DNA from: Bacilli bacterium
GTDB lineage: Bacteria; Bacillota_I; Bacilli_A; ML615J-28; CAG-698
Direction of reading: 5' to 3'
Length of the DNA: 64,000 bases
Assembly: GCA_031553555.1 (NCBI GenBank)
Contig: JAVBLL010000008.1
Location: forward strand, 5,662-69,661
The notes under the pieces are model-generated. The model ran no database searches. It was not told the origin of the DNA and worked only from the letters and a program-made list of their open reading frames with translations. The translations under genes were made by a program, and so were the position numbers. Below are positions 3,708 through 35,585 of the stretch, one piece after another (position 1 is the first letter of the stretch; each line of letters starts with the position of its first letter).

Positions 3708-5013
3708 AATGATGAGTAAAAATTATCCAGATATTGAAGAAACCGTTTTTTCAAAAGTATTAGACAATGGACTAGTAGTATATATTATTAAAAAAGAAGG
3801 CTTCAAAAAAATGTTTGCCACTTTTGCTACTCGTTTTGGCTCTACTGTTAATAAATTTGTTCCCATTGATGATGATCAATATATTGAGGTTCCTTTAGGT
3901 GTTGCCCATTTTTTAGAACATAAAGTTTTTGAAATGCCTGATGGTGAAGATGCATCAATGCTTTTTGCTAAGTATGGTGCTGAGGCCAATGCATTTACTG
4001 ATTATAACCAAACTGCATACATAGTTTCTAGTACTTCATATTACCATGAGGTTATTGAAACTTTACTAGACTATGTTCAAGTTCCTTATTTCACAGATGA
4101 AAATGTTGAAAAGGAACAAGGAATAATTTTGCAAGAACTTAAAATGTATCAAGATAATGCCAATGATCGCTTATACAACCATTTAATGAAAAATCTATTT
4201 CGCAAAAATCTTCATCGTGAAGAAATATTAGGAAATGAGCAATCAATTAGCACGATTACTAAGGAAGTATTATATAAGTGTTATGAAACATTTTATCATC
4301 CTAGTAATATGTGTTTGTGTATTGTTGGCGATTTTGATGTGGATGAAACTTTTAAAGTAGTTGAGAATAATCAAAATAAAAAAGAATTTCCTCCTTTTAA
4401 AGAGATAAAAAAAGAATATGTCATTGAAGATAATACAGTTTATCGCAGGAGTGGAAGCTGCACAATGGACATTGTTATGCCTAAAGTAACGGTTGCTGTA
4501 AAACTTCCAAGTTTTGAATATGAAGAAGATGAACTCCTTAGTATTGAACTACAAATTAAGATATTATTAGAAATGCTTTTTGGTTTTAGTTCAAAAAATT
4601 ATCAAGAAATGCTTGATAATGGTATTATTAACGGCTTATCATATGATTGTTCACTTGATGATATTACTGGCTTTATTCGTATTTCAGCCAGCAGTTTTAA
4701 GAATAAAGAATTTATTGCTTATGTTAAAAAGAAACTGCTAGAAATAAAGCATTTAGAAATTGATATAGAGTTATTAGAAAATATTAAAAAAGGTTTAATA
4801 GGCAATTATATTAGAGCATTAAATGATGTTGAATTTATTTCGACAAGCTATATAGATTATAAATTTAAAAATTGTGATTTATTTCATATTATTAAAATAA
4901 TAAAAGATATTAACAAAGAATCATTAAAACATTTATTTGTCTATTTTGTCAATTCAGCAATTACATCATATTCAATCTTGCCAAAAGAAGTAAGCTCATC
5001 AAAACAGCCATAG
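3700..5013 (+). CDS. ymfH: M16 (pitrilysin/insulinase) zinc peptidase (YmfH-like)
   Basis: GVAHFLEHKVFE (HxxEH), ANAFT, EKEQGIILQEL, FYHPSNM. Confidence 0.92.
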   Translation: MSKMMSKNYPDIEETVFSKVLDNGLVVYIIKKEGFKKMFATFATRFGSTVNKFVPIDDDQYIEVPLGVAHFLEHKVFEMPDGEDASMLFAKYGAEANAFTDYNQTAYIVSSTSYYHEVIETLLDYVQVPYFTDENVEKEQGIILQELKMYQDNANDRLYNHLMKNLFRKNLHREEILGNEQSISTITKEVLYKCYETFYHPSNMCLCIVGDFDVDETFKVVENNQNKKEFPPFKEIKKEYVIEDNTVYRRSGSCTMDIVMPKVTVAVKLPSFEYEEDELLSIELQIKILLEMLFGFSSKNYQEMLDNGIINGLSYDCSLDDITGFIRISASSFKNKEFIAYVKKKLLEIKHLEIDIELLENIKKGLIGNYIRALNDVEFISTSYIDYKFKNCDLFHIIKIIKDINKESLKHLFVYFVNSAITSYSILPKEVSSSKQP

Positions 5014-5030
5014 TTATCTATGGCTGTTTT
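5001..5030 (+). terminator. Intrinsic terminator after ymfH
   Basis: AAAACAGCCATAG-TTAT-CTATGGCTGTTTT. Confidence 0.85.
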
Positions 5031-5056
5031 ATTACTTATATAAAAACAGTTATTAT

Positions 5057-5087
5057 GAATTATAATTTCTTTTTTGCTAACAATAAG
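5057..5087 (+). promoter_or_regulatory. Putative alternative-sigma promoter of yihY-pdaA
   Basis: GAATT-N14-GCTAACAATA, same spacing and same 15-mer as at 2411-2425. Confidence 0.45.
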
Positions 5088-5101
5088 TATGGTGATTAAA
5101 A

Positions 5102-5923
5102 ATGGCAAAAATAAAAAAAATTATTAAAAATGTAAAAGCAATTATTAGTATTGATGAAAAATACAATTTATCATTAGTTAGTGCCTCAACTTCCTTTTAC
5201 ATTTTAGTAGCATTATTCAGTTTATTATCTCTAGCAATTCAATTTTACAATACTTTGTTTGCGGGCACAAATAATTTCCTAGTGAATTCTATAAACGATA
5301 TTATAAACCCATATTACCATGAATATATTGAACAAATATTACCAGTAATAAGTTTGAATAGTTTTTCGCCAATTTTATTTATTAGTTTATTTTGGTCCTC
5401 ATCAAGACTGATAAATGGCTACAATCGAGTTGCTGATATAATTTATGTTGAAGTGAAAAAACGAAATGGATTTCTAATAAGGGTTAGTTCCTTTTTTATG
5501 TTTTTAATGATTTTTTGTGTTTTACTATTTGAAATAGCAACAGCCTTATTTGCCACTGCATGGATAGCCAAATTTGTCAGTAATGTCATATTGTTTAGGA
5601 TAGTGCAATTCATTATTGAATTACTAGTAATTTTTTTAATAATATTAATTTTAAATATGTATGCTCCACCTGTTCCAATGACCTTTAAAAAAACATATTT
5701 TGGTTCATTTGTATCTACGACATTATTATATTTATCATCGGTGGTCATAATTATCATATTAAAATTATATCAAAGATTTAATCCAAATTATGGTATTATT
5801 TCTATTATTTCTATGCTATTCATCTGGATATTTACCATTAATTATATTATTATAATCGGTTTTTTTCTTAACTATTTAATTAACAAAATAAGGATATCAA
5901 AAGATAATAAAAATGGGGAATAA
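5102..5923 (+). CDS. YihY/BrkB family membrane protein
   Basis: About 6 hydrophobic segments; SASTSFYILVALF, LFWSSS and YG(IISI) match the YihY pattern. Confidence 0.75.
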   Translation: MAKIKKIIKNVKAIISIDEKYNLSLVSASTSFYILVALFSLLSLAIQFYNTLFAGTNNFLVNSINDIINPYYHEYIEQILPVISLNSFSPILFISLFWSSSRLINGYNRVADIIYVEVKKRNGFLIRVSSFFMFLMIFCVLLFEIATALFATAWIAKFVSNVILFRIVQFIIELLVIFLIILILNMYAPPVPMTFKKTYFGSFVSTTLLYLSSVVIIIILKLYQRFNPNYGIISIISMLFIWIFTINYIIIIGFFLNYLINKIRISKDNKNGE

Positions 5924-21025: not shown

Positions 21026-22787
21026 AATAAATAAATTAAAACAGTTCATTAGTAATTTCTTTTTTGGTATTAGAATTGCATATATATCAAGTAAAAAGTA
21101 TTTTGCTTTTAAAGTAATCTTAATTATTCTAACCGTCTTTATTGATTTGTTTAAAATTTGGATATGGCAAGAAGTATTAAATGGTATAATAAATAACAGT
21201 TTATCATATAAAGGACTCATAATATGGATTGTAATCTATATATTTTTAAAAATATGTAGTTATGGTAGTGAATATTTTACATATTATATTGATGATCAAT
21301 ATTCTACTTTAAGCAATGTTTATATAGAAAATATTATGATAACAAAAACTGCTAGAATGGATTTGTCTTTTTTTGATTCATCAAAAATGGGCGATAAATT
21401 GAGACAAATAAGAGCCGATTTTGGGGAAATAAACAACTTAGTTAATAATATCTTTAACTGTCTTTCCTCACTTATATATATGATAAGTGCACTTATGATG
21501 CTTTTAGTATTTAATGTCTATTTTGCAATAGTTGCCGTTATATTATTCATTCCTTACTATATAATTGAACAACAACACAGAAAAAAGAATTATGAACTTA
21601 CAAAAAATATTGTAACGCAAAATCGCGAAATGGAGTATTATGAAGATGTCTTTTTTGATGAAAATAATCAATTTGAAATAAAGGTTAATGATTGTGGAAG
21701 ATACTTTCTAAATAAAAGGAAGAACATATGGCATAATATTTACAAATTAAAATTAAAACAAGATACCAATTTTAATATTAAAAAAATATTAATGGATATA
21801 ATACTTCTCACACCAGAAATAATCATATTAATTGTTGGGATATTCAAAAGGGTAATAATTGGTACACTTCAATATCAATTAAATTTAATTAATACTTTTA
21901 AAAATTATAGTGAATACTTCTTAAAAATGGTAAGCACAATAATGGTTGGGGAAGAAAAATTAAATAACCTTCGCGACTTTATGAATTTAGATGCTAATAT
22001 TGAAAAAAGTGGTGATTTGATATTAGACGAACTTCCTAAAATAGAATTCTCTAATGTGTCTTTTAAATACCCAAAAGGCGATAATGATATATTGAATAAT
22101 TGTTCATTCACCATTCAAAAAGGAGAAAAACTAGGACTAATAGGTTTAAATGGAAGTGGTAAATCGACAATCATTAAATTGTTACTCAGATTTTATGATC
22201 CACAAGAGGGCACAATTAAAATTAATGATTTAGATATTAAAGAATACGACATATACTCAGTGAGAAAAGTATTCGGAGTATTATTTCAAGAATATGTGAC
22301 ATACTGCCTTCCGTTAAGAGAAATAATAGCTTTATCATCATTTGATGATAGAAATAATGACGAATTATTAGATAAGGCCTGCATTCAAAGTGGGGCAATA
22401 AAAATAATTGACCAATGGGAAAATAAATATGAAACTATTCTTGGAAGATATTATGCAGACGATGGAAAGAATTTAAGTGGTGGGCAGTGGCAAATCATTT
22501 CACTAGCTCGTACATATTTTCAAAGAAGTGATTTTGTCGTTTTAGATGAACCATCAGCAGCACTTGATCCAATAGAAGAAAATAAAATATTTAAAAGACT
22601 ATATGATTTAAGTGAAAACAAAGGATCTATTATTATTTCCCATCGCTTATCAAATACAGTTTTAGCCGATAAAATAATTGTCCTAGAAGATGGCAAGATA
22701 ATAGAAACAGGTAGCCATAAAGAATTAATTATGTTAAATGGCAAATATGCTCAATATTTTAATTTACAGGCTAGTAAGTATATTTAA
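21018..22787 (+). CDS. ABC exporter, fused permease/ATPase subunit 2
   Basis: TM helices; GLNGSGKST, LSGGQWQ, LDEPSAALD, ISHRLS; AGGAG RBS before ATG 21018. Confidence 0.92.
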   Translation: MNKINKLKQFISNFFFGIRIAYISSKKYFAFKVILIILTVFIDLFKIWIWQEVLNGIINNSLSYKGLIIWIVIYIFLKICSYGSEYFTYYIDDQYSTLSNVYIENIMITKTARMDLSFFDSSKMGDKLRQIRADFGEINNLVNNIFNCLSSLIYMISALMMLLVFNVYFAIVAVILFIPYYIIEQQHRKKNYELTKNIVTQNREMEYYEDVFFDENNQFEIKVNDCGRYFLNKRKNIWHNIYKLKLKQDTNFNIKKILMDIILLTPEIIILIVGIFKRVIIGTLQYQLNLINTFKNYSEYFLKMVSTIMVGEEKLNNLRDFMNLDANIEKSGDLILDELPKIEFSNVSFKYPKGDNDILNNCSFTIQKGEKLGLIGLNGSGKSTIIKLLLRFYDPQEGTIKINDLDIKEYDIYSVRKVFGVLFQEYVTYCLPLREIIALSSFDDRNNDELLDKACIQSGAIKIIDQWENKYETILGRYYADDGKNLSGGQWQIISLARTYFQRSDFVVLDEPSAALDPIEENKIFKRLYDLSENKGSIIISHRLSNTVLADKIIVLEDGKIIETGSHKELIMLNGKYAQYFNLQASKYI

Positions 22788-22822
22788 TTGTAAATATATA
22801 AATTCTTAAATATTTGAATAGT

Positions 22823-22871
22823 CAAAAGACTTGTTATAATTGATACCATATCAATTGTAACAAGTCTTTTG
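22823..22871. terminator. Long hairpin (23-bp stem) ending the ABC operon
   Basis: CAAAAGACTTGTTATAATTGATA-CCA-TATCAATTGTAACAAGTCTTTTG, one G.T wobble. Confidence 0.75.
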
Positions 22872-23046
22872 TGTGTTTTATAATTATTAGCGCAAATAAA
22901 TAGTTTTTATTCTAATCTATTAAAATATATTTTACTATAAATAATCTAAATATTTATCAAAAACCACATCTTTTTACAATTTATTCATTAAATTCTTTTG
23001 CTTTTGATAAAAATATGTTATAATAATAGATAAAAGCAGTATATTT

Positions 23047-23178
23047 ATGAAATACATTATTTGTGGGAGTGAAGCGATTAACAATAAATGCAATATATGT
23101 GGATATAAATTATATATTGCGAAGAAATCAATATTCAATAAACTATTTAAATCAAATGAAAGTGACCTTTTTTATTAA
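23047..23178 (+). pseudogene. Short zinc-ribbon-like remnant (43 aa)
   Basis: MKYIICGSEAINNKCNICGYK..: one intact and one degenerate CxxC; TGtTATAAT upstream; weak RBS. Confidence 0.3.
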
Positions 23179-23338
23179 ATGAAATTACCAAGGTGCAAGA
23201 TTTTTTTAGATTTTACTATAGATTTTATTAAAAAAAGCACATATAGTCGAGGAAAAATCATTAGAAACTGTCTAATTTGATCTTTAATATTAAATAATTA
23301 TTATATGTTTTTTAGCAAGTAATATAATAGTCTCAATG

Positions 23339-23374
23339 CACGTCGAGACTATCGTATTGCTTTATAGGAGATAA
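23339..23374 (+). repeat. Spare rlmD 3' end, copy 1 (att-like junction)
   Basis: Reads HVETIVLLYRR*, a canonical RlmD C-terminus; shares GACTATCGTATTGCTTTATAG with 30882-30902. Confidence 0.8.
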
Positions 23375-23592
23375 AGTGTCGTCAACATACCATCAATATG
23401 CTGTTTTTGGTAATAAAAACATAACTCAGCACTTAGATAGTCTCGAGGTAATGTTGAAGCTCACTAATTGAAACAAGTTAAAAATAAGAAAAAAGTAATA
23501 GTTGTTGAGTTAGGCAACATATAAAACGAAAAATTTCAATGTAGTGTTGAGACAGGAAACATATTTAAAAAGTTAAAGGAAGTAGGAGTAAT

Positions 23593-24837
23593 ATGAATGA
23601 AGATAAAATTAGAGTAGTTGAGTTATTTGCTGGTGTTGGAGGTTTTAGGCTTGGTTTAGAAAGAGCATCAACTATATTTGACACAGTCTTTGCAAGCCAA
23701 TGGGAACCAGGAAAAAAAGTTCAACATGCCTATAATTGCTACATATCACATTTTGGGGATAGTTCAAAGCACTCTAATAAAGATATAAACCTTGCCAAAA
23801 AAGACATTCCCGAACATGATTTATTAGTCGGAGGATTTCCTTGCCAAGATTATAGTGTGGCACACGGGAATAGTGCAGAAGGAATAAAGGGAAAAAAAGG
23901 GGTGTTATGGTGGGATATATTAGATATCATAAACGCTAAACAACCATCTATGATTCTATTGGAAAATGTTGACAGATTATTGAAGTCACCTTCTCAACAG
24001 AGAGGAAGAGATTTCGGCATTATGTTAAGAACTTTAGATGGGGAAGGTTATAATTGCGAATGGCGTGTTATAAATGCTGCAAATTATGGTTTAGCTCAAA
24101 AAAGACGAAGAATATTTATTTTTGCGTATCCTAGAAAAAATAAAAAAATATTTTTTGGTGAAAATGATGCAGCCAGTTTAGTTGAAAACAATGGCTTTTT
24201 TGCAACAATTTTTCCTATTGCAGCGACAGATATTAAGAAAAAAGCAGTTAATATGGATATAAGAGATGACAAATATAAAGATTTAGTTGATTTTAGTGAT
24301 AGATTCGTAACGGTTTTTTTGAATTCAGGTGTCATGATAGATGGGCATGTATATAGTTGTGAAACAATACCAGAATGCGTAGAGAGTCAGACAATCGGAG
24401 ATATTATTCAAAGTGATTTAACAGATTCTAAATATGAAATAAACGATTCCAAAGAAAAATTTGAAAAGTTGAAAGGATCGAAACAATTAGCAAGGCTTAC
24501 CCCAGATGGCGAGATTTATTTATATTCTGAAGGACAAATGTCTTTTCCGGATTCAATGGATGAGCCCGCGAGAACTTTATTAACAAGCGAATCATCTGTT
24601 TCGAGAACAACACATGTTATTTTAGATCCTAATACAAATAAATTAAGAGTGCTAACTCCACTTGAGTGCGAAAGATTAAATGGATTTAATGACAATTGGA
24701 CAAATACAGGCATGCCAGAAAAATTCAGATATTTCTGTATGGGAAATGCATTAGTAGTTCCTTTAGTTGAAAAAATGGGGAAAAGAATTAAAGAGTTAAT
24801 GGAGGTAACAAGATATGCAAAACAATCTAGTAGATGA
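23593..24837 (+). CDS. dcm: DNA (cytosine-5)-methyltransferase, M.Sau3AI-like (probably GATC)
   Basis: ELFAGVGG, QWEP, GGFPCQDYSVA, GKKGVLWW, ENVDRLLKSP, QKRRRIFI, MGNALVV. Confidence 0.93.
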   Translation: MNEDKIRVVELFAGVGGFRLGLERASTIFDTVFASQWEPGKKVQHAYNCYISHFGDSSKHSNKDINLAKKDIPEHDLLVGGFPCQDYSVAHGNSAEGIKGKKGVLWWDILDIINAKQPSMILLENVDRLLKSPSQQRGRDFGIMLRTLDGEGYNCEWRVINAANYGLAQKRRRIFIFAYPRKNKKIFFGENDAASLVENNGFFATIFPIAATDIKKKAVNMDIRDDKYKDLVDFSDRFVTVFLNSGVMIDGHVYSCETIPECVESQTIGDIIQSDLTDSKYEINDSKEKFEKLKGSKQLARLTPDGEIYLYSEGQMSFPDSMDEPARTLLTSESSVSRTTHVILDPNTNKLRVLTPLECERLNGFNDNWTNTGMPEKFRYFCMGNALVVPLVEKMGKRIKELMEVTRYAKQSSR

Positions 24838-25513
24838 AGTATCGGTTGAAAAATATATTCAGGATAGAATTTCAGAATTTAAAGGTTTAACAATTACACA
24901 GCTAAAAGAAAAGTTTAAGATTAATAGCACTTCGAAAAGTCTTAATTCAATGTTAATCTCTAGAATTGTAAGTTTGGAAAACATTGATATTGAATCTTTA
25001 CTATTCCTGAAAAAGCATTATGTATTTAAAACCGTAAAGGTAACTGCTAAAAATAAAGTTACTGAAAGCATGTCCTTTCCTGCAATTGATTACTATGATA
25101 TGTTAAAACATGATTGGAATAATTCCAATACTTACAAATATTTTTCCGAGAAAACATTTTTGTTATTTATTTTTAAAGAATCAGAAAACGATTCGATTCT
25201 TATAGATTTTATTACTCTAAAATTTTCCAAACTAGATTTATCAGAAATTTTCCTGGTTTGGGAAAAAGTTAAGAATATGTTAATTAATAATACACTAATT
25301 ATTGGAGGAAAATTTGGTTATTCTGTTGAAAATTTTCCTAAGAAAAACGAGAATGGTTTAATTCATGTCAGGCCGCATGATAACGACTCAAAAGTCGGCA
25401 AAATATTATTACCAGATGGAAGAAAAATAATTAATTATTGCTTTTGGTTAAATAACACTTTTATTGAAAATAAAATAAATAATGGAGGAATTCTATATGA
25501 GAAAGTTAGATAA
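24815..25513 (+). CDS. MutH/Sau3AI-family protein matching only the C-terminal non-catalytic domain of Sau3AI
   Basis: KTVKV..ESMSF, FLLFIFKE, HVRPH, FWLNN match the Sau3AI C-terminal half; no PD...ELK motif; 232 aa. Confidence 0.8.
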   Translation: MQNNLVDEVSVEKYIQDRISEFKGLTITQLKEKFKINSTSKSLNSMLISRIVSLENIDIESLLFLKKHYVFKTVKVTAKNKVTESMSFPAIDYYDMLKHDWNNSNTYKYFSEKTFLLFIFKESENDSILIDFITLKFSKLDLSEIFLVWEKVKNMLINNTLIIGGKFGYSVENFPKKNENGLIHVRPHDNDSKVGKILLPDGRKIINYCFWLNNTFIENKINNGGILYEKVR

Positions 25514-26717
25514 TATTAAGCAATTTGCTGAAGAAGTTGGAATAGAAACTCCAGACTGGGAGTCAACGGGCCAAAAAATGACCGTTTATTTAGTTCCTCT
25601 TGATAAATTGTTTTATAATGATGAAAATGGAAGAATATCTACATCAATAAGTGGTGATAAAGAAATTAATCCTGATTTGAATTATGAAGATATGGATTTA
25701 AAGGACTACAATAATAAAATCCACAATTTTGTTAAAGAATCTAATAATAGAGAAGATTTTCAAAAAACATATAACGATATTAAGCTTAAAGGCCAAATTA
25801 GACCTGGAGTTGTTTTATTTGACGGAAGAGTAGTTAGTGGAAATAGAAGATTTACAGTTCTAAGAGAGTTATATAGTGATACTGCTAATGACAAATTTGC
25901 TTATTTTAAGTGCTTTATAATCGAAAAAAACCTAGAAAATGAACAAGATAGGAAATATATAAAGACTATTGAAAGATTAACACAATTTGGTGTTGATGAA
26001 AAAGTGGATTATGATCCGATTTCAAGATTAGTAGATATCTATTACGATTTAATAGCTCCAAATCATATATGGACAATTGATGAATATTCGAAAAAATTAA
26101 GTTTAAAAAAATCAGACGTCGAACTAATGTATCATAAAGCAAAAATTATCGCTGATTTTCTTGATTATGACGAAAAGCCTAATAAATTTCATATTGCAAG
26201 ACAATTAAAAATGGACGGGCCAGTACAAGAGTTGGCAAGGTTATATAAGAATGTTAGTGTTGCTGAATGGAATAGAATCAGGGTGGTTTTTTATTCTAGT
26301 ATGAAGCAAAAAGGTGATAGAACTCGTGATATTAGAGGGCTAATAAAAGTTTACAATGAAAACCCAGAAAGTTTTAATGCACTAATAAAAAAATGCATTG
26401 GCGATGTAGAAGAAAACGAATTTAAGCAACCGATTTTCGCTGAAAACAAAGAAAATAGAGATAAGGACAATGACAATCATCCAGTTATTTCAGTTCTTTC
26501 AAACGATACTAATAATAGCATTTTTGAAGCAATATATGCGACAAAAGCAGAATCAAATAGAGCGGAAAAGGTAAAAAAGGTCATAAGTTATATTGAAAAC
26601 TTTAACAATAATATAGATGATGCTTTTTCACTTATGAATCAAGGGGAAATTAATAATTTTAAAATCAAAATTGAAATGTTAAAAAAGAAAATAAATGATA
26701 TAGAAAGTAAGTGGTAA
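25497..26717 (+). CDS. ParB/Srx-like domain protein
   Basis: LFYNDENGRI, GQIRPGVVLFDGRVVSGNRRF ParB-like core; coiled-coil C-terminus; GGAGG RBS. Confidence 0.75.
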   Translation: MRKLDNIKQFAEEVGIETPDWESTGQKMTVYLVPLDKLFYNDENGRISTSISGDKEINPDLNYEDMDLKDYNNKIHNFVKESNNREDFQKTYNDIKLKGQIRPGVVLFDGRVVSGNRRFTVLRELYSDTANDKFAYFKCFIIEKNLENEQDRKYIKTIERLTQFGVDEKVDYDPISRLVDIYYDLIAPNHIWTIDEYSKKLSLKKSDVELMYHKAKIIADFLDYDEKPNKFHIARQLKMDGPVQELARLYKNVSVAEWNRIRVVFYSSMKQKGDRTRDIRGLIKVYNENPESFNALIKKCIGDVEENEFKQPIFAENKENRDKDNDNHPVISVLSNDTNNSIFEAIYATKAESNRAEKVKKVISYIENFNNNIDDAFSLMNQGEINNFKIKIEMLKKKINDIESKW

Positions 26718-26719
26718 TT

Positions 26720-29311
26720 ATGTCATTAAATGAAATAAAAATAAAACCTTTTTTTAACTCTCAAAATGATGATGTAATTGAAGAATTCTACATTCCTGCT
26801 CTTTCAAATGCTAAGTGCTATAAAAGAGTTAGTGCATATTTTGATTCTAACATTCTTTCTCTTTACTCAAAAGGTATAGAAAACATTATAAAAGAAAAAG
26901 GGCATATATATTTTGTTTTTTCATGTGAAATTAATGAAAATGACTTCGAACTGATTAAAAAAGCTTATTCAGATAAAATGCAAATTTTCAATAGATTAAA
27001 TGATAGAATCAGTGATGAGTATCCGAGTGACGAGCTTAAAAATTTAGCTTACTTAATTAAGTATGGATTTGTTGATATAAAAATTGCATTCACAAAAACT
27101 GGTGGAATATTTCACGATAAATTCGGCTTAATAGAAGATGAAAGCAATTCAATATATTTTCGCGGTTCTAATAATGAAACAATAGCTTCTGTTTCTTGCA
27201 ATTATGAATCTTTTGAAACGACCTGTTCTTGGAATGCATCGAATAGTGAGAATAAAAAAATTCAGAATGCACAAGAAAATTTTAATAAGCTTTGGAATAA
27301 TAATGCATCAGATGATTTGTATGTTATCGATATCCCAGAAATAGTTAAAGAGAAAATTGTTTCATATTCAAAAGATAGGTTGATTCTTAATTACGAGAAT
27401 AAAGAAAATACTTTTATTCTTGATTTTATTGATAAAAAAATAATAGGAATCAATAATTTAAAAGGGATTAATTATTTGTCTCCAGAATATAGTTTTTTTA
27501 AAAGAGAATTACAACATTTGGTTCAGTCTATATCAGGTTCAAAATATTATTTTTCTAAATTAAACTATTTACACATTAAAAAACTGATAGCGATAATTAA
27601 GGAATATGCTGATAAATATTCTTTTAATGTATATATTACACAGTCATTAAATAAGTTTATCTATCAATGGGATATTATTTTAGATAAAAGACGATTATTA
27701 GGAATTTCTATAAAAAATAAAGATTCTATTTTACAAAAAGATTTTGAAAATTTTCGCAATATTGTTAATTCAGAAATGGTGCGCAGTTTAAGAGAACCAC
27801 AGCTTTGGGATGCTTTTCATATGAGTTATATGATGAGAAGTGCAAATTTTTCAGTGCCTGGTGCAGGAAAAACATCTATAGTTTATGGTGCATATGCCTA
27901 CTTATCTTCAAAAAAAATAAATCAAGTAAAAAAAATAGTCATGATTGGCCCAATTAACTCATTTGGTTCTTGGAAGAGAGAATTTGATAAGTGTTTTGGA
28001 CACAAGAAAAAATTAAAAGTTTTTGATTATCAGAAAGAAAGAGAAGTCACTAGTCAAAATAGATTCTTTCAAATTGCTTTTCATGAAAAAGAAATTAATT
28101 TGTTTTTATTTAATTATGAATCGTTACAAAATAACATTGATGCATTAAAACATATTGTAGATTCTGAAACACTTTTGGTTTTTGATGAAGTTCATAGAAT
28201 AAAATCAATTGATGGAAAAAGGGCAACTTCAGCTTTAAAAATATGTGATAACGCTCGATTTAGAGTTGTTTTAACAGGAACACCAATTCCAAATGGGTAT
28301 GTCGACTTATATAATATGTTAAACCTATTGTTCACGGATGAATATGAATCTTTTTTCGGATTTGATAAGTCTTTTTTGAAATTAGCAAACAATTATGAGA
28401 TAAATCAGAATGCTATCAATCAGTCTATTTATCCGTTCTTCTGCAGAACTAATAAAGCAGATTTAAATGTTCCACCTGCTGATTTGGATAATCTAGACGC
28501 AGGTTATTGCATTACAAATACTCGAGAAAGTGAGCTATTTGAAATAATATATAGGGCATTTCATAAAAACACGCTCCTTTTATATATCAGACTAATACAG
28601 GCTTCTAACAATCCATCATTATTACTGAATTCAATAAAAAAAGAGGATGAAATATTATTTAATACTTTTGATTATTCACCGGATTTTATTGAAGATAGTT
28701 TTGAAGAAATTAGCGAATTAACATCTGAAGATATAGAATATATTAAGTCATTTGATATGACGACAAAATTCTATAAAGGAATAGATTTAGTTAGTCAGTT
28801 GGTTAAGCAAGGATTGGTTATTGTATGGGGGATTTTTGTTGACACTTTATATAAAATAAGAGCTGAACTATTAAATAGAGGGATAAAAGCAAGGGTTATT
28901 AATGGCTCAGTACCAATTAGTGAAAGAGAAAATATTATTAATGATTTTTTAGATAATAAATTTGATGTGCTAATAACTAATCCACATACTTTAGCCGAAT
29001 CAGTTTCTTTACATACTTCTTGTCATCAAGCTGTATATTTTGAATATAGTTTCAATTTAGTTCACATGTTGCAATCAAGAGATAGAATACATAGATTAGG
29101 TTTAGCTGAGGATGCACGAACATCATATTATTACTTAATATTGGATAACCCTTATAGTTTATATACACCAATTGATAAGAAAATTTATCAAAGATTGCTT
29201 GAGAAAGAAGATATTCAAAATAAGGCGTTAAACGCTGAAAGAGTGACGTTTGTATTTGATGATGTTAAAGCAGATGTGATTAGTTTGCTTGGAGATTTCT
29301 ATGGCAAATAG
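26720..29311 (+). CDS. PLD (HxK) nuclease domain fused to SNF2-type SF2 helicase
   Basis: FYIPAL..YKRVSAYF and FHDKFG...GSNNET (PLD); NFSVPGAGKT, DEVH, LTGTPIPN, QSRDRIHRLG (helicase). Confidence 0.85.
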   Translation: MSLNEIKIKPFFNSQNDDVIEEFYIPALSNAKCYKRVSAYFDSNILSLYSKGIENIIKEKGHIYFVFSCEINENDFELIKKAYSDKMQIFNRLNDRISDEYPSDELKNLAYLIKYGFVDIKIAFTKTGGIFHDKFGLIEDESNSIYFRGSNNETIASVSCNYESFETTCSWNASNSENKKIQNAQENFNKLWNNNASDDLYVIDIPEIVKEKIVSYSKDRLILNYENKENTFILDFIDKKIIGINNLKGINYLSPEYSFFKRELQHLVQSISGSKYYFSKLNYLHIKKLIAIIKEYADKYSFNVYITQSLNKFIYQWDIILDKRRLLGISIKNKDSILQKDFENFRNIVNSEMVRSLREPQLWDAFHMSYMMRSANFSVPGAGKTSIVYGAYAYLSSKKINQVKKIVMIGPINSFGSWKREFDKCFGHKKKLKVFDYQKEREVTSQNRFFQIAFHEKEINLFLFNYESLQNNIDALKHIVDSETLLVFDEVHRIKSIDGKRATSALKICDNARFRVVLTGTPIPNGYVDLYNMLNLLFTDEYESFFGFDKSFLKLANNYEINQNAINQSIYPFFCRTNKADLNVPPADLDNLDAGYCITNTRESELFEIIYRAFHKNTLLLYIRLIQASNNPSLLLNSIKKEDEILFNTFDYSPDFIEDSFEEISELTSEDIEYIKSFDMTTKFYKGIDLVSQLVKQGLVIVWGIFVDTLYKIRAELLNRGIKARVINGSVPISERENIINDFLDNKFDVLITNPHTLAESVSLHTSCHQAVYFEYSFNLVHMLQSRDRIHRLGLAEDARTSYYYLILDNPYSLYTPIDKKIYQRLLEKEDIQNKALNAERVTFVFDDVKADVISLLGDFYGK

Positions 29312-30052
29312 CTTCAAAATACATTTTGATAGTAATGAATTAAATCTTCTAAAAAATATAATATTTATATATCAAGTAATGAAAGAAGTTATTGTTATTC
29401 ATCTGCTAATAAAAAAATCATATATGATTTTGGAGTTCCAAACTATTTTGAGTTTCTCGATTTCGTTTGGCATGGTGGCAGTTGGAAAAGTTTAATGATA
29501 AATTTTATAGACTGGTTTTTAATAGAATATGCTTGCGAAAACGAAAAATTATTAGAAATAAAACTTTCTTTTTCAAATGAGATGAAAACGAATTATATAG
29601 GTCCTTTTAAAAATAATCTTTATGTTAATGGGAATCATTCTGGAACCCACATGTGGTGGCAAATTATTGAATTAATTGGTTTACTTAATCGCGAAATTGA
29701 TTCGGACGCTAATTTGTTCATTCATTATCCATCTTTTGTAGAACCACCAGACATTGTTACTTTAATTTGGAAAAAAGAAATTAACCTCTTCAAAAAATAT
29801 TTATCCGATATTGGTTACAAAAGCGATGTAATAGAGAAGTTTGTTAATTGTGCAAAAAAAATTAACACTTTGTACAAATCAATTACTCCTAATTATCTTT
29901 TCTTTACACAAGATAGATTAAGTGATGTTTATAACTCGATTTCTAGACTAAAACAACGATATAATTATTTATTTAAAGATAATTTTCTAGATTTTAAAAA
30001 AGAAATTTTTTATGAAGATATTTCTTTTAAGGAGGTAAGGTATAATGGGTGA
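29301..30052 (+). pseudogene. Hypothetical protein split by a -1 frameshift at A6 (29351-29356); about 250 aa if joined
   Basis: GGAG RBS plus ATG 29301; the 29495 frame is open back to the A tract (K-YNIYISSNERSYC..WHGGSWKSLMINF). Confidence 0.7.
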
Positions 30053-30682
30053 ATTTAGGGGAACACTCGGTGATTTGCAAAAATATATAAATCCATATAT
30101 TCTAACTTTGATAAAAAAAGAAATTTAAATGTAGACCCGCATAATCTTAATTCAATTGTTTATGACTATTTAACGAAAGAATATAAACCATTACCCGGAG
30201 ATGTGTATTTTTTAAATTTAAATGTTTTTTGTGATTATCTTGTTGAAAAAATTGCTGATAATAATGCTAATTGTTATGAGAAGATTTGCAATGACAGTGT
30301 AGATAATAAGAATTCAACTATGCAATATCAATCAAAAAATAATGCTATATTGCCGTTTGAGTTATTGTTCAAGAAGGAAGAAGAATCTATACAAAAATAT
30401 GTTAAAAGATTATTTACTCTGTTATATGATAATAACTACCTCGATGATAAAACATTAATAATGCTCCAGGATAAAATTTATTGTCGGCTTGCTTTCGGTA
30501 TTGATTACCCATTGCTCATTACAGACGCAAGGGAAATTAAAGACAAAAAGGGCCATAATAGATATTGGACGAAATTTAAATTAAATGACACGTATTATGT
30601 TTGCAGTGAGTGGTGGAAAGACAAATTTCATATTTATGAGCAGCTTTTACATGATTGGATTAATATGAAATTTGGTGGTTAG
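30045..30682 (+). pseudogene. Hypothetical protein split by a -1 frameshift near A7 (30113-30119)
   Basis: GGAGGT RBS plus ATG 30045 gives MGEFRGTLGDLQKYINPYI.. stopping after 27 aa; the 30203 frame is open upstream through the A tract. Confidence 0.6.
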
Positions 30683-30873
30683 CATTGATACATAAAAGTT
30701 ATTAAATAAATTGTTCGCTATGATGACAACCAACTTGCTTATTAACTAGTTTAAATTGCATTACTAGTGAAAACGGAAGAAAAATGTCGAAAAGACATCA
30801 AAAAACACCGAAAAAAATATGTTACTTTGCTAGTCTCAGTAAGCGATTTTTCAGCACTTTGGTGGTCATGGTG

Positions 30874-30909
30874 CACATTGCGACTATCGTATTGCTTTAT
30901 AGAATATAA
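30874..30909 (+). repeat. Spare rlmD 3' end, copy 2 (att-like junction)
   Basis: Reads HIATIVLLYRI*; 21-nt exact match to copy 1. Confidence 0.8.
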
Positions 30910-31050
30910 AACACCGAAAATGACCTAAAATAGGCTGGAAATAGTATAAATCAGCAATAAAAAATTATTGGTTATCAGTTACTAATTAGTATTGAAACTA
31001 CATAATTACTATATAAAACTGGAAACATAAAATGAGGAAAAGAGTATTTA

Positions 31051-31704
31051 ATGAATATAAAAAATAATGAGTTAGAAATATGTAGAGCTTATAGTGAGTT
31101 TTATAAAAAAATTAAAGATACTATTCTAGTAAAAGAAAATATTGATTTGTCAAAGACAGATGTCACGGAAGCAGTATTGATAAGAATGTTTACTTATTAT
31201 GTTAATCAAGAGATTAATAAAATTATTCTTGGTAAGGGCAGAATGCAAAGTGCATCAGATTTTTTTGTAGAAACAATCTTATATTATTTACATAAGGTTT
31301 TGGATGATAAACTTACTATTTATTCAGAAAGAACAATATCTAAGGGATTTATGCCAGATATATCTATATGGAAAGATAGTGAATGTATTGCAATAATTGA
31401 ATGTAAAACACAGCTGGGATATAACAGAAGCGGATATCTTGAACAACATTTACAAAGGAAAAGGTTACTTCAGCAAATATTTCCAAATGCTAATTCTTAT
31501 TTGTTAGTAATGACAAATAAGAATTGGGGAAAAAATAATGGATTTACTCAACAAGATAGAATAGAATGCCCGAATGAATTGTTTAGTTTATGTAGAAGTT
31601 GGCCATCTCAAGTTGATACGACTAATATTGTCAATTACATTCAAGATAGATTTGAAGATTTATTAATGAAGTTTTCATTTGAAAATATAAAACAAAATGA
31701 TTAA
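31051..31704 (+). CDS. PD-(D/E)XK restriction-endonuclease-fold protein
   Basis: SER....FMPDISIW....IAIIECKTQLG catalytic pattern. Confidence 0.7.
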   Translation: MNIKNNELEICRAYSEFYKKIKDTILVKENIDLSKTDVTEAVLIRMFTYYVNQEINKIILGKGRMQSASDFFVETILYYLHKVLDDKLTIYSERTISKGFMPDISIWKDSECIAIIECKTQLGYNRSGYLEQHLQRKRLLQQIFPNANSYLLVMTNKNWGKNNGFTQQDRIECPNELFSLCRSWPSQVDTTNIVNYIQDRFEDLLMKFSFENIKQND

Positions 31705-31730
31705 AAGTATTTTGCAAGGAGGAAAAGCAA

Positions 31731-31973
31731 ATGAGCAAAATGTCAAGAAGTGATTTTAAAATGTTAAAAGGTCAGAAAGTAACATTGCAAGTAGTAGAAT
31801 ACGGAGAAGATTCTAAAGTTAAGATCGTTTCATATGGGGAGGATGTTTCATATAAGAAAGCAAGTTATGGCTCATCTAGTAAAACTATTAAAATAAAAAT
31901 TGTTACTTACGGAGAAGATGTAAAATTAAAAGAAGTAACTTATGGTGGAGATTTTGAAGCCATTATAAAATAG
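31731..31973 (+). CDS. 80-aa protein made of five imperfect [KQE]xV[ST]YGED repeats
   Basis: Strong AAGGAGG RBS; VVEYGED, IVSYGED, KASYGSS, IVTYGED, EVTYGGD. Confidence 0.8.
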   Translation: MSKMSRSDFKMLKGQKVTLQVVEYGEDSKVKIVSYGEDVSYKKASYGSSSKTIKIKIVTYGEDVKLKEVTYGGDFEAIIK

Positions 31974-32019
31974 TGAAAATTTCATTGGCGGCTTTTAAAA
32001 CAAAAGGATAATCTTGCTG

Positions 32020-32057
32020 CATGTTGATATGATAGTATTGTATTTAGCCAAAAATAA
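32020..32057 (+). repeat. Spare rlmD 3' end, copy 3 (degenerate)
   Basis: TGCATGTTGATATGATAGTATTG (HVDMIVL) matches copy 1 at 17/23 nt. Confidence 0.5.
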
Positions 32058-32162
32058 TAAAACAATATTAAAGTACAATAAGAATAAAATCTCAAACGAC
32101 ATTTATGATTAAATAAAAATGAAAGAAGTATAAATAGAAAGTTAATTAACGAGGTGAATTAA

Positions 32163-35100
32163 TTGGAGTTAGTATTAAAAGAATTTTGTAATAGTAGTTT
32201 GAATAACAGAAAACTTTTGCTTTTAACTGCTCCAACAGGCTCACGAAAAACAACTGCTGTTAGAAAATACATTGTTGAAAATTATCAAAAATACTGCGCA
32301 GAAGGCAAAAAAATATTTTTCATTACGCAACTAAAAAAGAATTTGCCATATGAAGAGTTAGAAGAAGATTTTAAAAAGGCTGGAATGCATGAAAACTTTC
32401 TGAAAGATGTAATGTTTGTTGACAATAATGCTGATACAGTAATAAATAGTTTTTTAAAACAAAATATTGAGGTTCCACAAAAAGAGTTTACTACTCTGAA
32501 AATATTTAAGCATTTAAATAACTATAAATATAAATTAAATGAATTAGATAAAAATTATAGCGAAGACAAAGCAGATAATTTGAATAATTTAAAAGAGAGA
32601 ATAGTAGAAGAATTTGAACCTGAATTGAGACGAAAAATATTAGCTCATTTATCAATTAAATGTAAAACTGAAAGTGAAAGAAGAAATTTAATAATTAATG
32701 GTGAATTAAGTTGGGTATCAAAGTTATATCCAACTGTATTTACTAGCATGAAAAAAGTTTTAATGATGTCAATAGATAAATTCCTATCTAAACATACTAC
32801 GTTTATAGAGAATGCTTATTTTTTTAATGAACATAAATCAACAGAAGGCGCAATCATTTTCATTGATGAATTTGATGCTGCAAAGAATGTTATTCAAAAA
32901 AATCAAATAAATTTGGGAATGCAAGGAAAAGTAAATTTGATTCAGTTATTTACAAAAATATATAAAAGTCTAACTACAATGAATTTTACACAAGAGATAT
33001 TACAAGACGGAAAAGAATTTCAATATAGTGATGAACAATTTACACCGTTAGAAATAAGGGACGGCATGAAGAAATTTGCAGATGAAATATTTAATGAATT
33101 TCATTTACATAATTTTTATAAATTACAAAATGACAGAGATGACAAAAGAATTGAAAGTGAAAATTCAGAAAATAATTTTTTGTTTTATGATGTAAATTTT
33201 CATTCTATTTTATCGAAAGCAGATTCAAACATTCACATAGATTTTAAAGAGAATATTAATAATTTTGTTTTAGAAAAAAAGTTGGATGATAAATATTTGC
33301 TTTTTAATTTAATAGATAGGTTGAATACTTTTATTGATTATTTTGTTAGGGGAATTCATTGGTGGACAATTAGATATCAGTCTATAAAAAATAAGCATAG
33401 GAAAGAAAATGATTTTTCTATGGACTATGCTAGGAGAAGCATTTTATCAGAATTTGGACTTGATTCAAACGAAAAAGAATGGATTACTAGAAAAATACAT
33501 TCAATATTTAAGTCAGCTAACAATAATTTTTCTGAATCAAGTTGTTATTATGATGATGGCATTTCTTTCTATCATTTTATTGATAGCGACAATCATGCCT
33601 CCATTACTAATATAAATTATTATAATTTTGAGATTACTCCAGAAAAGTATCTTTTAAATCTTTTGGATAATGCAAGAATAATTGGTATATCTGCAACAGC
33701 AGATGTCAAAACTGTTCTAGGCAATTTTAATATTGATTATTTAAAGTCATCATTGGATGCACGATATTATAAGTTGTCTAGTGAAGATATGAATAGAATG
33801 ACTGATAAATTTGTTGCTCAAAAAAATGAAAGTAACAAATATGAGATATTAGTAAAACATATTGAATCAGTGAACGAAGAAATCGATTTAAGCCAATATA
33901 TAAAACAAAAGCTAAATAATGAGTTTAATTCTGGAGACTATATTATCGATAGATATATTAGAACTTACAATGTGATTGAGTTGTTCGTTAAAAATGATTG
34001 TAAAGCTTTTATTTGTTTTATGAATCTTCATATGAATAATGAAGAAAAATTTAACGAAAAATTAATTAGAACATTTTGGAATGATATATTAATTAAATAT
34101 AATAAAAACATTGATGAATATGGATTATATAACCTAAAAACATATAATTATAATGTTGAAAAGAAAAAAGTTCATGATGATCTAGCTAACAATAAAAAAG
34201 TATTGTTATTTTCAACATACCAAACAATTGGTGCTGGACAAAATATACAATATACAATTGATAATAACATTGAAAATGATGCATATATATCTGAAGAAGA
34301 TATAATTGAAGAATTTACAAATAAAAAAGATTTTGATGGCATATATATTGATTGTCCTACTAATGTAATTGTAAATATGAATGATTATGTTACTGAAGAA
34401 AACTTTATTAAATATTTACTTCAAATGGAAGATTTAAAAGAGAATATTGAAATATCGGATGATATGGCATTGCATAATATAAAATCAGCATTTAAAAAAC
34501 ATTACGATAATAAGCATATAAAGTTTGGTTCTCTGGAAAACACTTCAAGTTATGGAAGATTTATATACAAAACTTTTGTACAAGCGACAGGTAGAATTTG
34601 TCGAACAAATAACAAAAATAATAAAGTTTACATATTATTGCATGATAAAGTTTGTAGGGAATTGGCAAAATTTGAAGATGAAATAAAAGATTTTCAAAAT
34701 AATGAAATTAATTCAGCAATAAGATATTGTCTAGATAATTTTGCGAATAAAAAAGAAAATGTAGAAATAAATGAAGATATTATCAAAAATGAAGAAAACA
34801 ACAAATATTTGAAGTACTTAATGGAAAATTTTCGCAAGGATGAGAACATTCGAAAAGAGTGGATTGAATTACGTGATTTTGTTTTGAAATATCCTTTAGT
34901 ACACTCTGAGGAAGCACTTTGTAAAACAAAATATAAAATACAATTACACAAATTTTTTGATAAACCAACCAACTATTATTATTTCGATTATTTAAATAAA
35001 AGCCAACATAATTTAAGAAAAATAAGTAAGCACAAAGACAAATTAAATAGAGAATTTTCTTATACTAAAGCTAGAATAGATAAAATATTGAAAATTCCAG

Positions 35101-35585
35101 GAATTATAGAGTTCTTTAAAGATAATGGATATAAATTTTATTTTGACCAATCTAGTTTTTTACTAATGCCAGAAATATTTGATAGAATTTATTTAGGCGC
35201 ATTAGGTGAGCTTGTAGGAAAGTATATCTTGAAAGAAAACAAAATATTTACATATGAAATTCCAGAATTAGAATTATTTGAAATATTTGATGGTAAACTA
35301 AGCGATGACATTTTTGTTGATTTTAAATTTCATAACGAAACAAGTGGAATTAACAGAAGAAAATTAAATGAAATACGCAAGAAAAAAAAGAAATGCAATG
35401 CAAAAATTGTTATCATCATCAATATTCTTGGTACTGGAAAATATGAGATGAATAGTATCGAAAAAGAAGGAATATTTTTTATTCCGGCATTATTCAATAC
35501 AGAAGATAATAGATATGCAAAAGAAAATATTGAAAAAATAAAGTCTTTAATAATTGAATTTGAAAAGAAATATAAATTTGTTTAA
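32163..35585 (+). CDS. Large SF2 helicase-like protein with C-terminal PD-(D/E)XK nuclease
   Basis: APTGSRKT (Walker A variant), IDEFD, GISATA, QATGRICRT; GALGE...FD...VDFK nuclease; TTG start after GAGGTG. Confidence 0.8.
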   Translation: MELVLKEFCNSSLNNRKLLLLTAPTGSRKTTAVRKYIVENYQKYCAEGKKIFFITQLKKNLPYEELEEDFKKAGMHENFLKDVMFVDNNADTVINSFLKQNIEVPQKEFTTLKIFKHLNNYKYKLNELDKNYSEDKADNLNNLKERIVEEFEPELRRKILAHLSIKCKTESERRNLIINGELSWVSKLYPTVFTSMKKVLMMSIDKFLSKHTTFIENAYFFNEHKSTEGAIIFIDEFDAAKNVIQKNQINLGMQGKVNLIQLFTKIYKSLTTMNFTQEILQDGKEFQYSDEQFTPLEIRDGMKKFADEIFNEFHLHNFYKLQNDRDDKRIESENSENNFLFYDVNFHSILSKADSNIHIDFKENINNFVLEKKLDDKYLLFNLIDRLNTFIDYFVRGIHWWTIRYQSIKNKHRKENDFSMDYARRSILSEFGLDSNEKEWITRKIHSIFKSANNNFSESSCYYDDGISFYHFIDSDNHASITNINYYNFEITPEKYLLNLLDNARIIGISATADVKTVLGNFNIDYLKSSLDARYYKLSSEDMNRMTDKFVAQKNESNKYEILVKHIESVNEEIDLSQYIKQKLNNEFNSGDYIIDRYIRTYNVIELFVKNDCKAFICFMNLHMNNEEKFNEKLIRTFWNDILIKYNKNIDEYGLYNLKTYNYNVEKKKVHDDLANNKKVLLFSTYQTIGAGQNIQYTIDNNIENDAYISEEDIIEEFTNKKDFDGIYIDCPTNVIVNMNDYVTEENFIKYLLQMEDLKENIEISDDMALHNIKSAFKKHYDNKHIKFGSLENTSSYGRFIYKTFVQATGRICRTNNKNNKVYILLHDKVCRELAKFEDEIKDFQNNEINSAIRYCLDNFANKKENVEINEDIIKNEENNKYLKYLMENFRKDENIRKEWIELRDFVLKYPLVHSEEALCKTKYKIQLHKFFDKPTNYYYFDYLNKSQHNLRKISKHKDKLNREFSYTKARIDKILKIPGIIEFFKDNGYKFYFDQSSFLLMPEIFDRIYLGALGELVGKYILKENKIFTYEIPELELFEIFDGKLSDDIFVDFKFHNETSGINRRKLNEIRKKKKKCNAKIVIIINILGTGKYEMNSIEKEGIFFIPALFNTEDNRYAKENIEKIKSLIIEFEKKYKFV

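Follow-up and report, generated by a model that had tools for sequence, protein, structure and literature searches.

How would a bacterium use half of a restriction enzyme, when the half that cuts is not there? This question is raised by a 64,000-nt stretch of contig JAVBLL010000008.1 from a Bacilli bacterium (hereafter the window, meaning the whole stretch), in which a cassette of seven open reading frames (ORFs), lettered A–G in plus-strand order, encodes a cytosine methyltransferase (A), a stand-alone Sau3AI C-terminal domain (B), a ParB-like protein (C) and a fusion of a phospholipase D (PLD)-family HKD nuclease with an SNF2 motor (D), followed by three small ORFs. An initial annotation took the set for a candidate new defence system. 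Our analysis indicates that the cassette is rather likely to be an anti-phage module of the AbiR family joined to a GATC C5-methyltransferase of the Sau3AI/LlaKR2I type, with a dead Sau3AI C-domain in the place of AbiRa. What is new is an architectural variant with a solo reader; what is known is AbiR plus its GATC methylase.

The four core domain calls of the initial annotation (Dcm, Sau3AI C-terminal half, ParB-like and PLD–SNF2) were borne out by profile and structure matches. Protein A is of the Dcm type (Pfam DNA_methylase PF00145, E 1e-65; TIGR00675 dcm; PADLOC MTase_II PDLC03329, E 7e-153). Protein B aligned just to the C-terminal half of Sau3AI (positions 235–475 of the 475 in NF040973; 131.8 bits against a cut-off of 300) and matched the Sau3AI C-domain structure in PDB entry 2reu (E 1.6e-10), as well as 7xm0 and 4pxg. 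Protein C had no match in Pfam, NCBIfam, PADLOC, PHROG or PDB sequences, and its AlphaFold2 model (predicted local distance difference test score, pLDDT, 87) matched ParB 7bnk (E 1.3e-4), 5k5d, Noc, KorB and sulfiredoxin folds in Foldseek; its motif G120-N121-R122-R123 is invariant in 26 homologues. Residues 5–224 of D correspond to an HKD nuclease domain (PADLOC PbeA, E 3e-64; NF042964, E 8e-22), and one D homologue, in the related locus L014, also matched Pfam PLDc_2. The motor of D matched Pfam SNF2-rel_dom (E 1e-21) and Helicase_C; among PDB structures, INO80 came closest. In 21 homologues of D, the HKD residues H135, K137, G152, S153 and N155, the Walker A residues G384, G386, K387 and T388 and the DExH residues D492, E493 and H495 are all invariant. 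Judged by these residues, the catalytic motifs of C and D are intact.

To which known system this set belongs was answered by its relatives. Among approximately 185,000 genomes (one per species), 313 homologues of C of about 400 aa were found at E ≤ 0.001, and the best 80 loci were kept (labelled with L numbers). By tblastn, a D homologue follows C in 76 of these 80 loci, and of the four exceptions, two are cut off by a contig edge. ORF calls and clustering brought out one more conserved gene, termed c2, which lies immediately 5' of C and encodes a protein of about 800–1000 aa with two to three RNA_pol_A_CTD repeats and Sigma70_r4 (Pfam; NCBIfam matches to rpoA, RpoD and MzaA) and with a long, conserved C-terminal module that has no Pfam family and whose profile matches 71 of the 80 loci. 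Repeats of the RNA polymerase (RNAP) alpha-CTD and sigma-70 region 4 were seen in the L014 protein (2711–5443) and in 33 other c2 proteins; the c2 protein of L004 gave just a weak, sub-threshold Tudor-like match (RapA Tudor domain, E 0.008). As phages often target these parts of the host RNAP, the RNAP-like domains of c2 may be baits rather than DNA binders.

A 2026 review describes AbiR of Lactococcus lactis pKR223 as three genes, of which AbiRi/AbiRa resembles a sigma-70 factor, AbiRii/AbiRb resembles ParB with 5K5D as its best structure, and AbiRiii/AbiRc combines an N-terminal domain like that of an ATP-dependent restriction endonuclease (7CLG) with a C-terminal INO80/SNF2-like ATPase (PMC13064643). 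According to the same source, AbiR has been known since 2000–2006 beside a GATC restriction-modification (R-M) system, was first described as two loci with the LlaKR2I R-M genes between them, disturbs the replication of phage DNA and depends on the LlaKR2I methylase, in whose absence it is toxic; how its components work is still called unclear (PMC13064643). Given the c2–C–D triad and its repeated linkage to Sau3AI-type genes, the related loci match AbiR domain for domain and in context; 5K5D, which the review names for AbiRii, was also among the top matches of the C model. The cassette itself shares with AbiR a ParB-fold protein of about 400 aa, an HKD-nuclease/SNF2-helicase fusion directly after it, and a linked C5-methylase of the Sau3AI/LlaKR2I type with putative GATC specificity, here a Dcm gene that overlaps the operon; the methylase dependence and self-toxicity reported for AbiR also fit a methylation-gated nuclease. 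It differs in that the sigma-70-like AbiRa (about 800 aa, encoded first) is absent from both window and genome and a solo Sau3AI C-domain is present, in having no full restriction enzyme, and in an extra small frameshifted gene after D. The c2 profile found nothing significant in the window (best E 0.099), and in the whole genome just RpoA, RpoD and one 42-residue chance match.

The proposal of a new defence system was therefore not upheld, the ParB-like protein and the HKD–SNF2 fusion being the AbiRb/AbiRc core as the review portrays it (PMC13064643). A full match to a described system, which the initial annotation had named as counting against novelty, was found in part, since the match comes without AbiRa and with an added solo reader. 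The observation that the set corresponds to no normal Sau3AI R-M system and to no DISARM held good: B comes without the catalytic half, and no tested ORF matched DrmA, DrmB or DUF1998. A categorically new system, unrelated to any described, is very improbable; PADLOC v2 reported no complete system and C was without a match in any library, as novelty would predict, but the domain-for-domain match to AbiR and the genomic context speak against it.

We then asked whether B could still be a nuclease. In an alignment of Sau3AI N-domains, C-domains and solo proteins, all ten N-domains keep D-x6-7-E-L-K and the downstream K-E-R, whereas none of the nine solo proteins keeps the Glu or the Asp, so that D…ExK is gone; B has YVFK where the catalytic N-domains have ELK, and no upstream Asp. 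A tblastn search (E ≤ 10) found no Sau3AI N-domain anywhere in the genome. In Sau3AI, the C-domain is reported to be a non-catalytic effector, and the first GATC bound there opens the catalytic domain (bioRxiv 10.64898/2026.04.21.719898). By analogy, B is predicted to be a reader rather than a nuclease, with methyl-sensitive binding of GATC. The solo B proteins share only 20–49% identity with one another and have kept their length and invariant residues, which argues for long selection as separate genes.

The distribution of B was followed across the related loci. By tblastn, A and B homologues co-occur in exactly the same 21 of the 80 loci. The methyltransferases of these loci are 44–65% identical to A, and the Sau3AI-type gene is full-length in nine of the 21; all five of the nine that were tested score above the NF040973 cut-off (431–526 bits, together with the L006 fusion below). 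A homologues adjoin bona fide Sau3AI-family enzymes in related loci. D occurs in a long form with the HKD domain (about 855–895 aa; 32 loci, tblastn) and a short form without it (about 620–650 aa), and the HKD-bearing form is found in 19 of the 21 A/B loci versus 13 of the 59 others. Nine loci are without c2. Of these, L058 starts just before C and is not judgeable, and all eight assessable ones (L001, L002, L023, L028, L041, L049, L052 and L057) have a solo B of 224–278 aa directly upstream of C, in the order A–B–C–D. One locus, L037, has a c2-like gene plus a solo B located after D. In three further loci the two proteins are fused: a full Sau3AI joined to c2 in L006 (4817–8752; 1311 aa; passing the NF040973 cut-off), a Sau3AI C-domain joined to c2 in L013 (5200–7914; a Methanomassiliicoccales, archaeal, bin) and a Sau3AI C-domain joined to the c2 tail in L048 (6014–7567; 517 aa).

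The solo-B order A–B–C–D spans bins of Acholeplasma, Spiroplasma, Erysipelotrichaceae, Anaeroplasmataceae, Staphylococcaceae and others. In a quick maximum-likelihood tree of C, for which the careful search is unfinished, eight of the nine solo-B rows, the window included, fall in one clade (SH-aLRT 98), which also holds three loci with a full Sau3AI R-M system and a short, divergent c2; mapped on this tree, the solo-B label requires three changes. These patterns bear on the possibility that the cassette is a decay product, in which the endonuclease of a Sau3AI-type R-M system was stripped of its catalytic half and the adjoining AbiR of AbiRa, with an orphan methylase and a residual C-domain ORF left in an inactive or partly active remnant. 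Both the Sau3AI N-domain and AbiRa are indeed absent from the genome, the gene 3' of D is frameshifted, and frameshifted full-length Sau3AI genes occur in relatives (G080, below). We nevertheless consider decay improbable: the A–B(solo)–C–D order recurs in eight of the 80 loci and in the genome G284, across several families, solo B proteins at 20–49% identity still keep length and invariant residues, C and D retain their catalytic and ATPase residues, and solo B and AbiRa are strictly complementary.

An even sample of 400 genomes of the phylum (labelled with G numbers) served as an independent check. Sau3AI-like matches were present in 35 of 399 genomes and C-like matches in 10 of 400. A Sau3AI-like gene is present in five of the ten C-positive genomes, in each case no more than 3 kb from C, versus 30 of the approximately 389 other genomes; the five are the window genome (G000), G304, G284, G333 and G324. 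Solo forms among the 35 matches were found in G000, G304 and G284, and G333, a congener of G284, is probably solo as well. Three short-looking Sau3AI genes proved to be a frameshifted full-length gene (G080) and two that are full-length under genetic code 4 (G249 and G030); the remaining matches were judged by open-frame length only. G284 has A–B(solo)–C–D(long) and no c2, G324 has M and then R.Sau3AI–c2–C–D, and G213 and G374 have c2–C–D only. As the initial annotation had supposed, Dcm/MutH genes thus co-occur with ParB/SNF2 genes elsewhere, in 21 of the 80 loci and in five of the ten C-positive genomes.

The same data weigh on the reading of the cassette as two independent neighbours, namely an orphan Dcm that, with a GATC-binding partner, serves epigenetic control or anti-restriction, and a methylation-independent AbiRb/AbiRc pair that happen to share an island. 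Defence genes do cluster, the island also holds a DdmD homologue, and many c2–C–D loci have no methylases. Against this, the reading frames of A, B, C and D overlap, the co-occurrence concerns Sau3AI-type modules specifically and recurs in different phyla, fusions included, B and AbiRa are strictly complementary, and the methylase dependence of AbiR is published (PMC13064643); we regard independent neighbours as quite unlikely.

Is GATC the sequence at stake? LlaKR2I, Sau3AI and MutH are related and all cut GATC, and cytosine methylation blocks Sau3AI, as described in PMC4471560. Of the 16 4-bp palindromes, GATC falls furthest below expectation in the whole genome (2535 observed against 4972 expected; observed/expected ratio, O/E, 0.51), followed by CATG (O/E 0.61) and GGCC (O/E 0.67). 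Such under-representation is expected in a lineage under GATC-directed restriction, and it is present although the genome encodes no complete GATC endonuclease. Beyond those of the cassette, the genome has no Dcm, C or D homologue. From its family and linkage, A probably converts GATC to GATm5C (m5C, 5-methylcytosine).

By analogy with AbiR and Sau3AI, the cassette probably works as a methylation-gated, ATP-driven split restriction enzyme, with a reader of Type II origin and the motor-nuclease of AbiR. This follows the mechanism put forward in the initial annotation (methylation as the mark of self, the solo domain as reader of unmethylated GATC, the PLD–SNF2 protein as the cutter), which we still regard as the best, though inferred, reading. 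A would methylate host GATC to GATm5C, a step for which family and linkage were shown and specificity is predicted. B would then bind GATC without the cytosine methyl, as in incoming or freshly replicated phage DNA, and DNA-bound B would license the AbiRb/AbiRc pair (C–D). In this pair, C may serve as a ParB/Srx-type nucleotide-gated clamp or adaptor, and D may be an SNF2 translocase that both translocates and cuts; as D carries a single HKD motif, it would, like HKD-family enzymes, have to pair with a second copy to form the nuclease site. ATP-driven translocation and cleavage would stop phage DNA replication, the phenotype reported for AbiR, and without the methylase the host itself would come under attack, as also reported for AbiR. 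A broader reading, which we hold tentatively and place slightly below an even chance, is that AbiR is a modular family with a constant ParB-clamp/SNF2 core, to which an HKD nuclease is fused in this subtype, and an exchangeable sensor slot, where B would act in trans as the reader of unmethylated GATC, licensing a nuclease of another fold. On equally tentative terms, the slot could be filled by a sigma/RpoA-CTD-like protein, by its Sau3AI fusion, or by a free, nuclease-dead Sau3AI effector domain.

The role of B could also be the opposite one, that of a brake: AbiRb and AbiRc would attack DNA by themselves, B would shield or time GATC sites, for instance in un- or hemimethylated host DNA following replication, or repress the operon as a GATC-binding protein, and the phage would escape the brake. 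Classical AbiR is methylase-dependent though the review credits none of its three proteins with a known GATC reader (PMC13064643), c2–C–D triads are often without a linked methylase, and for related HKD-helicase systems a negative regulatory role of small accessory proteins has been suggested (PMC10853773), all of which such a brake would accommodate. However, the Sau3AI C-domain is reported to activate rather than inhibit (bioRxiv 10.64898/2026.04.21.719898), the fusions to AbiRa in L006, L013 and L048 put the domain in the presumed sensor slot, and shielding would not explain the avoidance of GATC. A brake is unlikely on these grounds, and a licensing reader is the role that we prefer for B.

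Several points weigh against the identification as an AbiR variant with a replaced sensor. The comparison with AbiR is one of description, made through architecture and context as the review gives them; the PADLOC v2 profiles gave no AbiR match for c2, C or D, and none of the sources searched gives any homologue the name AbiR. B and AbiRa showed no detectable homology (hhalign against the c2 C-terminal module and full-length c2, probability <1%), and the replacement of AbiRa by B is suggested by position and complementary distribution. The 80 loci were ranked against a window-led alignment and include many close kin (27 of Collinsella type), so that the fractions given for them are not population frequencies. 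Around the 26 c2–C–D loci without Sau3AI modules, none of the 99 neighbours (within three genes) is a DNA methyltransferase; therefore, the AbiRb/AbiRc core is not always tied to a linked methylase. Methylation gating may be specific to a subtype, and in the methylase-less loci AbiRa may sense something else. Finally, the frameshifted gene 3' of D and a 1-nt insertion at 27253, within D, in one RNA-library contig may point to some decay. Co-folding of B with C and D(1–350), for which controls were not run, scored 0.00 and carries no weight either way.

We further compared the cassette with other systems that combine similar parts. It shares with the Sau3AI/LlaKR2I/DpnIII Type II R-M systems (GATC, m5C) the methyltransferase family, and B is homologous to the C-terminal effector of their enzymes; in contrast to these, the catalytic N-terminal MutH-like domain and D…ExK are missing, and cleavage would need the HKD domain of D. 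The ATP-dependent Type II systems NgoAVII and CglI consist of an m5C methylase, a PLD–B3 R-protein and a helicase N-protein. Their logic is alike, with a cytosine methylase marking self, a reader, a PLD nuclease and a superfamily 2 (SF2) motor, and ATP hydrolysis for cleavage. In those systems, however, the B3 reader and the PLD nuclease form one polypeptide, with the motor on its own; in the cassette it is nuclease and motor that are joined, while the reader stands alone and a ParB-like protein comes in addition. PDB entry 7CLG, which we take to be SauUSI, a Type IV enzyme of PLD nuclease–helicase–DUF3427 architecture, likewise has an N-terminal PLD-family nuclease fused to an SF2 ATPase. SauUSI attacks methylated DNA; the cassette would be expected to spare it, and D has no DUF3427 target-recognition domain, ending about 66 aa after the helicase. 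In L073, a SauUSI-like gene (PLDc_2–ResIII–DUF3427) adjoins the AbiR-like triad as a separate system.

PbeA combines an HKD endoDNase with an SF2 helicase in one protein (PMC10853773), and the N-terminal domain of D matches PbeA profiles; in other respects the cassette differs from PbeABCD/CxC-ABC-ATPase systems, as the window is without a CxC ABC ATPase (PbeC), a DndE-like PbeD and phosphorothioation genes, and the PbeA profiles match D only. Class 2 DISARM resembles the cassette in the cooperation of a C5-methylase, a PLD-family nuclease and helicases; however, DrmA and DrmB/DUF1998 were matched by none of the 14 ORFs tested between 17458 and 36326, and the DrmMII match of A and the DrmD matches of D are generic and local. 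ARMADA and the BREX-related 'BR' systems were rejected, as the YprA/DUF1998 or DUF499 proteins that they require are absent here. A literature search joining Sau3AI, SNF2, phospholipase D and restriction found no report.

The association of the core pair with restriction genes may extend beyond Sau3AI. In 27 Actinomycetota-type loci (L059 and 26 others; Collinsella, Bifidobacterium and relatives), a short c2 (437 aa), C and an HKD-less SNF2 protein (650 aa) are flanked by an Eco57I-like methylase and a 1127-aa ResIII protein and, mostly, by a GmrSD gene on the other side, which suggests that the core pair plugs into other restriction systems too. The pair is widespread: relatives of C are found on 66 plasmid records, 52 of them from Enterococcus, and one E. 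faecalis plasmid is annotated with a 'sigma factor-like HTH protein' (HTH, helix-turn-helix), a hypothetical protein and a 'DEAD/DEAH box helicase' in succession. On the Lactococcus lactis plasmid pIBB109_AgSa_3 (L081), the ParB-like and helicase genes come immediately after a Type III Mod–Res pair, and the annotation shows no AbiRa-like gene in between. Only four of 50,697 phage records carry a C relative, and one homologue has more than 3,000 database proteins at E ≤ 1e-20.

The layout of the cassette is compact (Table 1). With longest-ORF starts, the overlaps are 23 nt for A/B, 32 nt for B/C, 7 nt for C/D and 23 nt for D/E, E and F share 1 nt, and 150 nt separate F from G. Of the two unknowns in the initial annotation, G remained without a family match, and the other proved to be a single gene split by a frameshift. 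E+F is 40% identical over 231 aa to an intact 256-aa protein encoded directly 3' of D in L001; the homology runs across the annotated start of F, and the first residues of the L001 protein align to E in the other frame. The frame change falls in the A6 run. The run has the same length in DNA contigs and in an RNA-library contig from the same study. By tblastn, F homologues were found in L001 and L002 only among the 80 loci, and the E+F gene has just three homologues in 5.8 billion proteins. No usable fold was obtained: the AlphaFold2 model of the L001 homologue, built with four sequences, had a pLDDT of 53.6, and the ESM Atlas gave no usable match for F. G had no match in Pfam, NCBIfam, PADLOC or PHROGs; its residues 59–139 are 31% like the C-terminus of a 749-aa L057 protein that clusters with GmrSD-type proteins, and its position next to C–D is not conserved in the 80 loci. 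None of the proteins E, F, G, H, I and K showed similarity to the c2 tail.

Table 1 Features of the cassette, by position in the window
Feature	Positions	Strand	Length or residues	Description
A	23593-24837	+	414 aa	C5-cytosine DNA methyltransferase, Sau3AI/LlaKR2I-associated type, probable GATm5C
B	24815-25513	+	232 aa	Solo Sau3AI C-terminal (effector) domain; predicted nuclease-dead GATC reader
C	25482-26717	+	411 aa	AbiRb-like ParB/Srx fold; GNRR motif, helical middle domain, C-terminal helical hairpin
D	26711-29311	+	866 aa	AbiRc-like fusion of HKD (PLD-family) nuclease and SNF2 ATPase motor
D, HKD nuclease domain	26753-27385	+	~aa 15-225	
D, SNF2 ATPase motor	27857-29110	+	~aa 383-800	
E	29289-29495	+	68 aa	5' piece of the frameshift-split gene E+F
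F	29495-30052	+	185 aa	3' piece of the frameshift-split gene E+F
E+F, single gene	29301-30052	+		ATG at 29301; frameshift in A6 run 29351-29356
G	30203-30682	+	159 aa	No family match; membership in the system doubtful
Direct repeat, left copy	23337-23375		39 nt	From repeat comparison
Direct repeat, right copy	30872-30910		39 nt	From repeat comparison

The window is AT-rich (GC about 28%), and all of its genes of at least 100 aa lie on the plus strand, except two short ORFs inside or overlapping plus-strand genes. The cassette is flanked on the left by an ABC-transporter gene ending at 22787, with a terminator-like hairpin downstream (22824–22870), and on the right by a gene without a family match starting at 31051. 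The two repeat copies exactly enclose A–G, are 87% identical with an identical 21-nt core, and are the only copies in the 2.03-Mb genome; the left copy has an inverted partner at 23428–23449, and the core is absent from all other related loci compared. The repeat could have been left by an insertion or could serve as a common regulatory site. An Rfam scan of 22700–32200, repeats included, gave no match, no tRNA genes were found in the window, and a promoter scan was uninformative in such AT-rich DNA (63 found versus 65.9 expected). DNA comparison with five genomes of the same family, made for the island borders, matched just short ABC-transporter segments. No excision joint across the cassette was seen in the contigs of two runs, although contigs cannot show absence. 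RNA-library contigs from an invertebrate-gut metagenome study matched 23511–31038 in seven pieces with no base substitutions, which is compatible with transcription of the cassette, DNA carry-over being possible. One of them has an extra A after 27253, inside the nuclease domain of D, that the DNA contigs do not have and that may be an assembly or slippage artefact.

Downstream of the cassette, the plus-strand gene at 32163–35585 encodes a 1140-aa DdmD homologue (PDB 9ix4, E 9e-38 over residues 15–1092; PADLOC DdmD, E 3e-27). No DdmE-like partner is visible near it, its neighbours being proteins of 217, 80 and 212 aa without a significant family match, and it may be a solitary or re-partnered DdmD-type defence gene. 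The 217-aa protein (31051–31704) has no library match and shows, by eye, a PD…E-x-K-like motif (PDISIW…IIECK); the 80-aa protein (31731–31973) consists of V-x-Y-G-E/G-D repeats with a weak phrog_6462 match.

The window and its relatives amount to a natural domain-swap experiment, with B present where AbiRa is missing and fusions of the two elsewhere. As the PADLOC v2 profiles miss both C and the AbiRa-like protein, current annotation probably under-counts the system. The proposed mechanism gives a testable account of methylation sensing and a four-gene minimal version of the system, and it hints at how self is told from foreign DNA. If true, it would provide the first case of the allosteric domain of a Type II enzyme serving as a stand-alone methylation reader for another nuclease, and would explain the 20-year-old methylase dependence of AbiR.

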